IMG/VR virus record: IMGVR_UViG_2869221657_000003
Span: 20,732-84,731 of that record
DNA: 64,000 nucleotides
Reading direction: 5' to 3' (one strand)
From: a virus
Lineage: Duplodnaviria; Caudoviricetes
Positions within the stretch are counted from its first letter, which is position 1; every line of letters begins with the position of its first letter. The notes beneath the pieces are model-generated. The model made no database searches. It was given only the letters and a program-made list of their open reading frames with translations, and was not told the origin of the DNA. Both the position numbers and the translations under genes were made by a program. Below are positions 6,285 through 63,650 of this stretch, piece after piece.

Positions 6285-6375
6285 TTCTGTTTGTCCGATT
6301 TTCCGGACAGTTTGGACTGTTTCCGGAGTACGGCTGCTGTACTTGATCCATCGCAGCAACAACTTGGAGGTTTAA

Positions 6376-21890: not shown

Positions 21891-21968
21891 TGTGGCTTTT
21901 CCCCCGGTTTCGGTTTTGTTTTCGCGTATGTTATCGCACCTGTGTGGTTCCTGCAAGGGTGCTGTGGT

Positions 21969-22044
21969 GCCGCTGTGGCTGAATGGTTAGGCTGCCGCCC
22001 GCAAAGCGGTTTATTCCGGTTCGATTCCGGGGGGGGGGGCGGCT
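21969..22044 (+). tRNA. tRNA-Cys(GCA) with an expanded G11 run
   Basis: GCCGC-CCGCAAA-GCGGT, CCGG-TTCGATT-CCGG; 11 G where about 6 are expected. Confidence 0.7.
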
Positions 22045-22056
22045 CTTTATTGACAT

Positions 22057-22129
22057 TGGCATGTAGCTCAATTGGCAGAGCACTAGATTGTTAATCTGGG
22101 GGATGCAGGTTCGACCCCTGCGATGTCAG
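22057..22129 (+). tRNA. tRNA-Asn(GTT)
   Basis: CTAGA-TTGTTAA-TCTGG, GCAGG-TTCGACC-CCTGC. Confidence 0.9.
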
Positions 22130-22139
22130 CTTTAGAAAG

Positions 22140-22212
22140 TGCGCCCACTAGGGATCGAACCTAGGACCCGAAGATTAAAAGTCTCCTGCTCTACCAACTG
22201 AGCTATAGGCGC
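22140..22212 (-). tRNA. Phage tRNA-Lys(TTT), opposite strand to the rest of the array
   Basis: Reverse complement: GCGCCTA/TGGGCGC, GGAGA-CTTTTAA-TCTTC, CTAGG-TTCGATC-CCTAG. Confidence 0.95.
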
Positions 22213-22223
22213 TTGCGGCACGA

Positions 22224-22571
22224 TCATACCCCCTGCGTTTCGGCCATCTCGTCGTAGGTGTCGAACAGCTCCGGCCAGTCATCTCCGGGCTGGAAGACGC
22301 TGCCGGGTAAGCGGTTCGTTACTACGGCTAGCCTCATGCCGATGTGCTCTATCCCTACGGTTGCAAGCCAGCCTGCGCAAGCCTGTTCCTTACCTTCGTC
22401 TGTCTTGTGGCAGGCGAAGATGGGTGAGCCTAAGGGGCGTTCGTGCCCGGCCTCTCCGGCGGTGCTGCGGAGCGCTTCGTAGCGTTCTGCGGGGAACTTG
22501 CCGGGTGGGGTGTCGCGCCGCCAGGGGCATTCGTTGCATGGGTAGCGCTTGTGCGGGAGTGATCCGGTCAT
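22224..22571 (-). CDS. DUF6283-like Cys-rich protein
   Basis: PCNECPWRRD...FACHKT...CAGWL. Confidence 0.75.
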   Translation of the reverse strand: MTGSLPHKRYPCNECPWRRDTPPGKFPAERYEALRSTAGEAGHERPLGSPIFACHKTDEGKEQACAGWLATVGIEHIGMRLAVVTNRLPGSVFQPGDDWPELFDTYDEMAETQGV

Positions 22572-22578
22572 GTCCTAT

Positions 22579-22607
22579 ACAGTACGGGAGCCGTACGCCT
22601 TTGTCAA
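22579..22607 (-). promoter_or_regulatory. SigA-type promoter, leaderless mRNA, overlapped by GTAC-N7-GTAC
   Basis: TTGACA-17-TACTGT with 7 nt between the -10 and the ATG at 22571. Confidence 0.8.
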
Positions 22608-22880
22608 CTACCTATTAGCCCAATAGCGCAATTCGATCTCTTTATCTTGGCACTTCTCGACTAAGGGCCTTAGGTCGGCTATCTCCTCGCGGAGAACTTC
22701 AATGACGATCTTTAGTTGGTCGAATTCGTGTGCTGCCTTGCGAATGTTTTGGGTGGCTTGCCACAAGGTCGGCCAGCTGCTTTGAACGTCCGACATCACG
22801 CGTCGGTGATAGTCGGGCTGGGGACCTTGATCGGTGATCGCGGCCTCTAGCTGCTCTAATGCCGCCTTAAGGTCACTCAT
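22608..22880 (-). CDS. Hypothetical coiled-coil protein
   Basis: Coupled leftward ORF. Confidence 0.55.
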   Translation of the reverse strand: MSDLKAALEQLEAAITDQGPQPDYHRRVMSDVQSSWPTLWQATQNIRKAAHEFDQLKIVIEVLREEIADLRPLVEKCQDKEIELRYWANR

Positions 22881-23206
22881 TCCTGCACCACCCAATGAAT
22901 GCGAGCCGCTAACAGTTCCGGCTTATCCTCGCGGCCAAGTTCCGCATAACGGATAACCAGGTGGTTGTAGAAGCCGCGCACTTCATCCTCATTCCGGGAT
23001 ATGGACGATATGCGGGGTTCAAAGCCCTTTTCGGACCAACGCACGGCCCAGATCGGCCCGCCCGCGTAGACACCGGCCACGCCGGTTGTGCTGCCGGGCT
23101 TGTGCTTGTCTTTGCATTCCTGGCACCAGCCGCCCCTTAGTAGGGACTTGCCGCCAATCTGGCACTTAATGCAAATGCCTACGCCTATAGGCTTAGCCTT
23201 AGTCAT
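22877..23206 (-). CDS. Hypothetical protein with a zinc motif
   Basis: CIKC...CQEC. Confidence 0.55.
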   Translation of the reverse strand: MTKAKPIGVGICIKCQIGGKSLLRGGWCQECKDKHKPGSTTGVAGVYAGGPIWAVRWSEKGFEPRISSISRNEDEVRGFYNHLVIRYAELGREDKPELLAARIHWVVQE

Positions 23207-23441
23207 CTTCGTTCCACCTTTCGCCCGCGTACGTTGGGTCAAACCAACTTGGCGGGGTGTCTGTGTCGGGGTACTGCTGGCGGATCGCGTCGATGCGTGG
23301 CTGGACCCGTTCGACGTATGTGCCGTAGTGGCGTGTGCAGCGGGGGTACAGCTCGCCGCTGCCTGATAGGGCTTCGTAGCGGTTCACCGGCCCCTGGCAT
23401 GGCCCGTACTCGTCAATGTGGGCGTCTACGCAGTTGTCCAC
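23199..23441 (-). CDS. Hypothetical protein
   Basis: C-x9-C...RCTRH; coupled ORF. Confidence 0.6.
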   Translation of the reverse strand: MDNCVDAHIDEYGPCQGPVNRYEALSGSGELYPRCTRHYGTYVERVQPRIDAIRQQYPDTDTPPSWFDPTYAGERWNEDD

Positions 23442-61294: not shown

Positions 61295-61594
61295 CTAAAC
61301 GGCGGGCGGAAACTTGCCGTACACGCCTGTGTCTAAGTCTCCGGCTATGAAAGCTTGGTTTTGGTCGTCGGCGCGTTTGGCGGTGGCGGCTTGCTCTCGC
61401 CGGTATGCGGCCCTACGCGCCTCTATGACGCGTTCATACTCGCCGGAGTCGTGGTCCATGCGGTTATAGGCCCAGAGGACGCCAGCGAAGCACGCAGCGC
61501 CCAATGCCCACCACTTGAGAGCAGCGAACAGGATGACGACAGTGCCACCGACGACGAGTGCGCGAATCATACGGGCACCGTATCCCATGCCCAC
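61295..61594 (-). CDS. Small membrane protein
   Basis: Two N-terminal hydrophobic helices. Confidence 0.6.
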   Translation of the reverse strand: MGMGYGARMIRALVVGGTVVILFAALKWWALGAACFAGVLWAYNRMDHDSGEYERVIEARRAAYRREQAATAKRADDQNQAFIAGDLDTGVYGKFPPAV

Positions 61595-62307
61595 ATCTGC
61601 CGGTGAGTGTCCACCAGGTAGGTGTTGACCTTCGCCATGTCGGGCTTTTCGGGCAGCTTGCTTGTCTCCCCGGCCTCTGCGATGCGGTCGCGCCAGAACT
61701 CGATTTCCTCTAGGCAGCGCGCCTGGCTGTACTCGCCGTTACGGACACCTAACAGGAACTCCCGCGCCAGGTCATGCATAGGCATGGTCATGGTCTGCCG
61801 GGTCAGCATTTCGTGACCTTGGATCAGCAGCCGGATCGCGTGGAAGCACGCCTTAGTGTCGAATCCGTGCGCCTCGATCAGCTCAGGCCGGTTGGTGCGC
61901 GGCGCTTTCTCGCCCTTGATCCGCGCGGCCATGCTCTCCGCATAGCCGACGTGCGTAGTGGCGATGATCCGCGACAGGAATAGCTCACGGTTGGCCTGCA
62001 ACCCGATTGTGTCGGGCATGGTGAGCGTCGGCGTGAACAGCAGCGTCATCATCGTTGGGTTGCCCTTAACGACCTGATAGACGTACTGCCGGAGCGGGTA
62101 ATAGGTTGTCTCGCTGTCGCCAGCGGTGGACTTGACCCCTTCGGGCTTATCCCGGTCCCTGATGGCGTCCTTAGCGGACTTTAGGCCGATGATGACCTCG
62201 GGCGGGTCTGCGTAGACGCCTATGTAGTCGTGGTCTGACTGTGCGTTGTTTAGCCCGTGGGCGTATGACCCGATTTCGCCGATGATGTATGGCTTGATTT
62301 CCTGCAT
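61567..62307 (-). CDS. Pol-beta-superfamily nucleotidyltransferase (RlaP / PF10127-like)
   Basis: GSYAHGLNNAQSDHD motif, KGNPTMM, HAIRLL; GGGGGAG RBS before ATG at 62307. Confidence 0.82.
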   Translation of the reverse strand: MQEIKPYIIGEIGSYAHGLNNAQSDHDYIGVYADPPEVIIGLKSAKDAIRDRDKPEGVKSTAGDSETTYYPLRQYVYQVVKGNPTMMTLLFTPTLTMPDTIGLQANRELFLSRIIATTHVGYAESMAARIKGEKAPRTNRPELIEAHGFDTKACFHAIRLLIQGHEMLTRQTMTMPMHDLAREFLLGVRNGEYSQARCLEEIEFWRDRIAEAGETSKLPEKPDMAKVNTYLVDTHRQMWAWDTVPV

Positions 62308-62396
62308 ATGAAGCTCCCCCTTAATGAAGCTAGCCCCGGCGGGTGCCCCTCCCAAGGCACCCAGCCGGGACCAGCGGCCCCCGACCCCCGATTGGT

Positions 62397-62837
62397 TTAG
62401 GACTCGACTTTTGCCGGTTCCTTGGCTGTGGGTGCAGCAGCCTTTTTGGCGGGTGCACCCGCAGCCTTTTTGGCGGCTTCCCCGACTGGCGACCCGGCGG
62501 CTTTCCATGCCCGCACAACTTCAGCGGAGACGCGGCCACGATCCGCAACGTCGTGCCCGTTGGCCTGTGCCCAGGTCCGGATATCCCCGAGGGGCAGACC
62601 TTCCTCCCCGCCGGAATGCGTTGCCCTGCCGCCCCGCTTGGCGCGGGTCGTGGTGGCCCGGCCTACGCGGGTGGCCTTTTCGGTCCACTTCGCCTGATCC
62701 TTGTCGAACGCCTTTGCGTTCTTTTCGGACAGGTCCAGGTGGTATCCGATGCCGTCGACCGTCCACTCACGTTCCGTGGTGGCCTCGACCTCAGGCTCCA
62801 GATCGTCAAACAGTGTGACGGTTACTCGCTTACCCAT
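62397..62837 (-). CDS. lsr2: Lsr2-like nucleoid protein with a Lys/Ala/Pro-rich tail
   Basis: DDL...DGIGYHLDLS dimerisation domain; IRTWAQANGHDVADRGRV AT-hook. Confidence 0.92.
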   Translation of the reverse strand: MGKRVTVTLFDDLEPEVEATTEREWTVDGIGYHLDLSEKNAKAFDKDQAKWTEKATRVGRATTTRAKRGGRATHSGGEEGLPLGDIRTWAQANGHDVADRGRVSAEVVRAWKAAGSPVGEAAKKAAGAPAKKAAAPTAKEPAKVES

Positions 62838-63542: not shown

Positions 63543-63563
63543 GGTGACACTTTGGTTGACACC
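63543..63563. repeat. Probable integrase arm-type direct repeats
   Basis: GGTGACAC and GTTGACAC, about 12 bp apart, ~50 bp inside the junction. Confidence 0.55.
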
Positions 63564-63605
63564 TGGCGCAAAAATAGGCTTCTAGCTGCGGCGGAGCAAC
63601 TGGAA

Positions 63606-63626
63606 CTACGGCTTAAAAGTCCGTAG
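63606..63626. other. att core: CTACGG inverted repeat around the tRNA-Lys anticodon loop
   Basis: CTACGGA-CTTTTAA-GCCGTAG on the minus strand; tRNA homology stops here. Confidence 0.75.
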
Positions 63627-63650
63627 CTCTACCGACTGAGCTATAGGGGC
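63613..63650 (-). pseudogene. 5' half of host tRNA-Lys(TTT), truncated at the anticodon loop
   Basis: GCCCCTA-TA-GCTC-AGTCGGTA-GAGC-T-ACGGA-CTTTTAA, then no T-arm or acceptor 3' strand. Confidence 0.85.

Follow-up and report, generated by a model that had tools for sequence, protein, structure and literature searches.

A prophage in a wild mycobacterial genome splits the host tRNA-Lys(UUU) gene and carries the only intact copy in the assembly

Introduction

How does a lysogen read its AAA codons when a prophage has cut the host gene for tRNA-Lys(UUU) in two? This question is raised by a 64,000-nucleotide stretch of DNA, hereafter the window, which corresponds to C33:208207-272206 of a 6.07-Mb assembly (78 contigs, 100% complete) and in which, close to the end, one half of a tRNA gene of the host runs into phage DNA. 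The original prediction, made from the window alone, offered two alternatives: the other prophage junction rebuilds the gene from a 5′ half and promoter supplied by the phage, or the lysogen relies on a tRNA-Lys(UUU) encoded by the prophage, in an arrangement of complementation or addiction.

Lysogeny of the second kind has been described by Guerrero-Bustamante and Hatfull (mBio 2024; PMC10865867) as “tRNA-dependent lysogeny,” in which a tyrosine integrase joins attP to an attB in a tRNA gene across a core of about 10 bp, leaving that gene broken. The phage makes good the loss with a tRNA of its own of the same isotype, without which the lysogen does not survive, as was shown experimentally (PMC10865867) for Fionnbharth, a K4 phage, and for phages of Cluster L, at attB-4, which in M. 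smegmatis is the only gene for tRNA-Lys-TTT. Across subclusters L1-L5 the cores measure 9-17 bp, and tRNA-Lys-TTT is typically the sole leftward tRNA (PMC10865867).

Results

The host tRNA-Lys(UUU) gene is divided between two junctions 78.6 kb apart

The 5′ half of the host gene occupies 63613-63650 on the minus strand and comprises the 5′ strand of the acceptor, the D arm, the 5′ strand of the anticodon stem and the anticodon loop. Read from 63650, it runs GCCCCTA-TA-GCTC-AGTCGGTA-GAGC-T-ACGGA-CTTTTAA; these are tRNA positions 1-38, with the anticodon loop CTTTTAA as the last element, and they match without a difference the first 38 nt of tRNA-Lys in the relative G011, where the gene is intact. 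As had been predicted, this half abuts phage DNA, and no T arm follows the junction at 63613. The place of the tRNA 3′ half is taken by phage DNA (63577-63612, minus strand, beginning GCCGTAGTTCCAGTTGCTCC...) that bears a faint likeness to it (GCCGTAG-TTCCAG as against TCCGCAGGTCCCAG). Infernal aligned this hybrid only by deleting the whole T arm, and even then two pairs of the acceptor were non-canonical and the anticodon stem contained an A.G pair. The score was 30.1 bits, just above the Rfam threshold of 29; the neighbouring real tRNAs for Glu, Asp and Phe score 63-72 bits. ARAGORN called no tRNA at the window junction.

The 3′ half of the gene (TCCGCAGGTCCCAGGTTCGAGCCCTGGTGGGGGCACCA) lies outside the window, 78.6 kb away, at C33 193181-193230. 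When the two halves are joined, they give, base for base, the intact tRNA-Lys(UUU) of G011, the closest relative, in which the gene stands in the same Lys/Glu-Asp-Phe neighbourhood. An empty site was found in the public sequencing run X1, where a contig at least 99% identical over the host flank passes from the core to the tRNA 3′ half and on to the host flank, carrying an intact tRNA-Lys and no prophage. Of two further runs, X2 covers conserved tRNA pieces only and X3 comes from a more distant relative.

Both junctions contain a common core of 12 bp. One copy is at 63613-63624 (TTAAAAGTCCGT on the plus strand, ACGGACTTTTAA in the sense of the tRNA) and the other at C33 193219-193230, which is 14,976-14,987 bases before the start of the window, so the two copies are 78,600 bp apart. 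We set the limits of the core by the first mismatches on either side of the 12 bp, which separate host from phage sequence. The inverted repeat that the original prediction had described around the site, CTACGG (63606-63611) and CCGTAG (63621-63626), is present. Outside the core, attP retains scattered identity to the tRNA, with GA(G/A)CT on its 5′ flank and xCCGxAG-TxCCAG on its 3′ flank, a pattern that binding sites of the core type would explain, as would descent from a core that was once longer.

The insert resembles a divergent Cluster L phage

Positions 1-63612 of the window are part of a 78,600-bp prophage, as judged by synteny, by its integrase, repressor and Lsr2-like genes and by the spacing of the cores; the remainder, which includes the genes for the integrase, the repressor and the Cro-like protein, is found in the 14,975 bases that precede the window. 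The integrase, Int B, is a 437-amino-acid tyrosine integrase (L002:372-1685; PF00589 at E 3e-19, with an N-terminal SAM-like domain) located just inside the far junction, its start 141 bp from the core. It shares 65% amino acid identity with the integrase of Snenia, a Cluster L phage that is itself not listed in PMC10865867. The integrase is followed by a phrog_950 gene, the repressor (phrog_1746) and a divergent Cro-like gene, while the end of the prophage in the window carries an Lsr2-like gene, an RlaP-family nucleotidyltransferase and a small ORF in the order of Snenia genes 33-35.

The structural genes are syntenic with those of Chaser, Bromden and Krypton555 at 77-79% nucleotide identity, a value that spans about 55% of the 24-kb structural segment compared with Cluster L. 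Identity to Cluster L phages is 72-77% in the integrase region, and the tRNA region is 70-75% identical to GuuelaD, JoeDirt and others; no sequenced phage showed 80% or more nucleotide identity to the prophage. By these measures the insert appears to be a divergent Cluster L-like temperate mycobacteriophage.

The arm-like repeats noted in the original prediction were recovered as a putative arm-type pair in the P arm (63543-63563, plus strand), with GGTGACAC at 63543-63550 and GTTGACACC at 63555-63563. By k-mer analysis, the reconstructed attP has a perfect GTTGACACC and an imperfect GGTGACAC to the left of the core, and two further copies of GTTGACACC lie 106 and 119 bp past the core on the integrase side, outside the window. 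Such paired repeats are as expected for the arm-type sites of a lambda-like integrase, and we regard them as putative sites of this kind.

Two other features of the prophage were recorded. The RlaP-family nucleotidyltransferase (61567-62508, minus strand), whose family belongs to an RNA repair pathway, sits beside the Lsr2-like gene near the prophage end, and together with the tRNA set it may be linked to the countering of anticodon nucleases. In addition, L002 11112-11220, some 4 kb ahead of the window, weakly matches YrlA, a Y RNA-like family, at 28.3 bits where the gathering threshold is 69.

A second element uses the same tRNA gene

At the far junction, 22 bp past the tRNA 3′ half, comes the end of a second tyrosine integrase (461 amino acids, only 22% identical to that of the phage). 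This integrase is part of a 7.1-kb element (C33 186085-193223, about 15.0-22.1 kb before the window) that also carries HTH, DUF2742 and AAA_25 genes. Each edge of the element has a copy of the tRNA 3′ half, running from TTTAA to CCA, and the two copies (C33 186085-186127 and 193181-193223) form a perfect direct repeat of 43 bp. The element is a canonical, tRNA-restoring integrative element of the phiRv2 type, standing in tandem with the non-restoring phage. Run X1, from a near-identical isolate, is without both the prophage and this element. A serine integrase was considered as the cause of the non-restoring insertion and rejected, as both integrases at the locus are tyrosine recombinases.

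Elsewhere in the genome, two isolated fragments of 26-31 bp (G000 C9 4034-4064 and C10 106499-106524) are 96-97% identical to the region of the tRNA-Lys anticodon stem-loop. A Pfam scan of the nearby ORFs, two per locus, found no integrase; the fragments may be old att scars or secondary sites.

The only intact tRNA-Lys(UUU) gene in the assembly is that of the phage

The prophage encodes an intact tRNA-Lys(UUU) at 22139-22212 on the minus strand (69.2 bits; originally placed at 22140-22212), and it is the only one of the 10 phage tRNAs in that orientation. The distance to the integrase-side junction is about 37 kb, and that to the junction in the window about 41 kb. Compared with the tRNA-Lys of other phages, its sequence has 97.3% identity to that of Cluster L members including Faith1, GuuelaD and Finemlucis; for Phrank and Krueger, both K6 phages, the value is 90-92%.

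Whole-genome ARAGORN listed three Lys genes, namely Lys(CUU) on contig C7, the phage Lys(UUU) and a 74-nt tRNA-Lys(ttt) at C33 193181-193254, in which the host 3′ half is preceded by phage sequence. The last of these is discounted on structural grounds below, and the phage copy is thus the single intact Lys(UUU) gene in this 78-contig, 100% complete draft. Four relatives whose genomes are complete or nearly so, three being assembled in 1-5 contigs, each have exactly one full-length copy, at this locus; the unpublished genome G025 underlies none of our claims. AAA makes up 19% of host Lys codons and is present in about 79% of long host ORFs. This codon usage, together with the single copy in the relatives, gives indirect support to a need for Lys(UUU). 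When public sequencing runs were compared with the junction stretch, none contained more than 38% of its words, and no RNA run of the strain was found. We infer both expression of the phage tRNA in the lysogen and its necessity for viability there.

Alternative explanations and the most probable reading

The ARAGORN call at C33 193181-193254 is what favours a working tRNA-Lys at the other junction, assembled from a phage-supplied 5′ half so that the host gene is not lost, and the phage-derived GACCCTG there does pair with five of seven positions of the acceptor 3′ strand, if two G.U pairs are included. The structure nevertheless rules the call out as evidence of a surviving host gene: the D arm is down to one base pair, acceptor pair 2-71 is A.G, and Infernal deletes the D arm and returns 27.9 bits, under the Rfam threshold of 29. 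Moreover, the attP of Snenia has no tRNA-like 5′ half at the corresponding place, and reconstruction of the tRNA was found for no Cluster L subcluster (PMC10865867). We therefore regard the call as an artefact and a rebuilt gene as highly improbable; the far junction holds the host 3′ half alone, and, to judge from these predicted folds, neither junction encodes a real, foldable tRNA. The first of the two alternatives originally proposed thus fails.

It is also very unlikely that a second host Lys(UUU) gene lies in unassembled DNA and leaves the phage copy dispensable, serving to supply codons in lytic growth or to defend against anticodon nucleases. The assembly is a draft, the countering of PrrC-like nucleases has been named as a possible extra role (PMC10865867), and RNA-repair-type genes of the RlaP family occur in the prophage as well. 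Against this, completeness is 100%, the relatives are uniformly single-copy, and M. smegmatis is reported to have one tRNA-Lys(UUU) gene (PMC10865867); a lytic role would also leave unexplained why tRNA-Lys alone points leftward, away from the array. A chimeric assembly, or an old att scar in place of a live insertion, is scarcely credible as the source of the junction. The tRNA-Lys-like fragments on C9 and C10 lend this idea some colour, but both junctions are on one contig, the halves are exactly complementary with the 12-bp duplication in common, and the integrase and repressor, the structural genes and the arm sites all seem complete.

Very probably, then, this is a natural lysogen living by tRNA-dependent lysogeny, in which the prophage splits the host's single tRNA-Lys(UUU) gene and supplies a copy of its own. 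The locus combines an adjacent tyrosine integrase, an attB within a tRNA gene, a short core and a cognate phage tRNA, which are the sequence marks of such lysogeny; the gene is split, both junctions fail, one intact copy is found in the phage, and the phage is kin to Cluster L. The host tRNA appears single-copy and needed, with the small doubt that a draft assembly leaves. In the mechanism we propose, a 78.6-kb phage of the Cluster L kind with a lambda-type tyrosine integrase would have recombined its attP, a 12-bp core between paired arm-type sites, with the host's single tRNA-Lys(UUU) gene (attB-4). The 12 bp shared by attP and attB would cover only the 5′ side of the anticodon stem and the anticodon loop, and because nothing more is shared, the 5′ half of the tRNA comes to lie at one end of the prophage and the 3′ half at the other. 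Host AAA codons would then be read by the prophage tRNA-Lys(UUU), transcribed leftward and apart from the lytic tRNA array.

Reliance of the lysogen on the prophage tRNA, the second of the original alternatives, accordingly fits everything that we tested: no other intact Lys(UUU) was found in the assembly, the relatives have one copy at this locus, and published Cluster L phages behave in this way. Of the two words first used for the arrangement, dependence in the sense of complementation is supported, while “addiction” is apt only in part, since excision, if precise, would restore the host tRNA-Lys gene. Losing the phage tRNA by deletion or decay with the prophage still integrated should be lethal. 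The original observation is confirmed; the mechanism itself is not new and has already been published for Cluster L phages and for this site.

Candidate promoters of the phage tRNA-Lys(UUU)

Directly upstream of the phage tRNA, as first described, is a DUF6283 gene (22224-22571, minus strand; PF19800, E 4.9e-26), which is also the neighbour of tRNA-Lys in Finemlucis. The promoter-like element reported before this gene is real as sequence: TTGACA (22607-22602) and TACTGT (22584-22579) are separated by 17 nt on the minus strand (22579-22607), and the element holds the dyad GTACGGCTCCCGTAC (22582-22596). Only 7 nt separate its end from the ATG of DUF6283, so that the transcript would be leaderless. 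A generic sigma-70 scan of 21900-23300 returned no promoter. Its −10 rule is stricter than the mycobacterial TANNNT, so the scan carries little weight, and it missed this element because TACTGT matches TATAAT at three of six positions.

The dyad recurs across the prophage. We found 11 copies of GTAC-N7-GTAC in the window (positions 6328, 22582, 24782, 25686, 27403, 28742, 28777, 30251, 30295, 30455 and 62865), where 0.61 would be expected, and three more in the rest of the prophage (L002 289, 2547 and 5572), giving 14 in total. Several follow TTGACA-N5 and overlap the −10 hexamer, in the form TTGACA-N5-GTACGGCnGCCGTAC-TGT, before leaderless leftward genes; others lie before int, one such copy being inside the attP arm, and upstream of the Lsr2-like gene. 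This geometry resembles that of an operator, and the set looks like an operator-like regulon. Binding of the dyad by the immunity repressor, should it occur, would silence the promoter upstream of DUF6283 in the lysogen. Published work was searched for operators of Cluster L phages and for RNA-seq of lysogens, and nothing specific was retrieved.

Much closer to the tRNA is a −10-like hexamer, TATGAT (22223-22228, minus strand), whose first base lies 16 nt upstream of the tRNA 5′ end and which shares bases with the stop codon of DUF6283. We compared this region in eight phages (this prophage, JoeDirt, GuuelaD, Archie, Snenia, Finemlucis, DyoEdafos and the K6 phage Phrank), and in all eight a TANNNT starts 12-17 nt before the mature 5′ end of tRNA-Lys-TTT. 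The hexamer mostly occurs as cTGnTACACT, and six of the phages share cTGnTA(C/G)ACT in spite of upstream sequences, and even upstream genes, that differ. The proximal hexamer is likely the native promoter of the tRNA-Lys itself. On the published plasmids, Cluster L tRNAs were driven by the Fionnbharth promoter, and their native promoter was not defined (PMC10865867).

These two elements suggest a two-tier control of the complementing tRNA-Lys, which we put forward tentatively and consider rather doubtful: the conserved proximal promoter would act together with the upstream TTGACA-17-TACTGT promoter of the 14-site GTAC-N7-GTAC regulon. Under such control, the proximal TANNNT promoter would keep the essential tRNA on during lysogeny.

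Discussion

The closest parallels to this prophage are Cluster L phages such as LeBron, Gabriela, Whirlwind, Chaser or Baudelaire. They have in common with it the tRNA-Lys-TTT target, the integrase family, a short core (12 bp here, 9-17 bp there), a tRNA that is rebuilt at neither junction, a leftward tRNA-Lys-TTT set apart from a rightward array, and the gene order Lsr2-like, attP, int, repressor. The prophage differs in being resident in a wild genome, whereas those lysogens were made in the laboratory in M. smegmatis; in its divergent lineage (below 80% nucleotide identity to any sequenced phage); and in standing in tandem with a second element at the same tRNA. In Cluster L the dependence on the tRNA was shown by experiment, while here it is predicted from the sequence.

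The K4 phage Fionnbharth and the K6 phage Cain also use attB-4, with cores of 10-11 bp and a complementing phage tRNA-Lys-TTT (PMC10865867), but they belong to another phage cluster with another genome architecture, and the single tRNA of K4 lies beside the integration cassette rather than some 37 kb off. Canonical integration, as by Boilgate (K8, with a 38/43-bp core at attB-4) or L5 (at tRNA-Gly), likewise involves a tyrosine integrase, a tRNA target, arm-type sites and a crossover in or near the anticodon loop. There, however, attP holds the whole 3′ half of the tRNA and the gene is rebuilt, whereas here only 12 bp are common to both sites. Lj965 of Lactobacillus johnsonii is similar in that the tRNA is left unrebuilt at the junction and a cognate tRNA is encoded (PMC10865867), but its host belongs to an unrelated phylum and dependence was never tested there.

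Earlier demonstrations of tRNA-dependent lysogeny relied mostly on lysogens made in the laboratory and on plasmids that integrate; our findings very probably extend it to a mycobacterial genome from the wild, where one and the same tRNA hosts both a divergent Cluster L-like prophage and a canonical integrative element. Automatic annotation would list a tRNA-Lys(UUU) at the junction, as ARAGORN does, and would miss that the sole working copy is phage-borne. The conserved −10 element before the tRNA is a testable candidate for the native Cluster L tRNA promoter that published work left undefined. If the GTAC-N7-GTAC dyad proved to mark promoters active in the lysogen rather than an immunity operator, it would define the lysogenic transcription programme of Cluster L. 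For the cell, the prophage tRNA could not be lost by decay or deletion. Only precise excision would be safe, so the domestication of prophages at the tRNA-Lys locus should be slowed.
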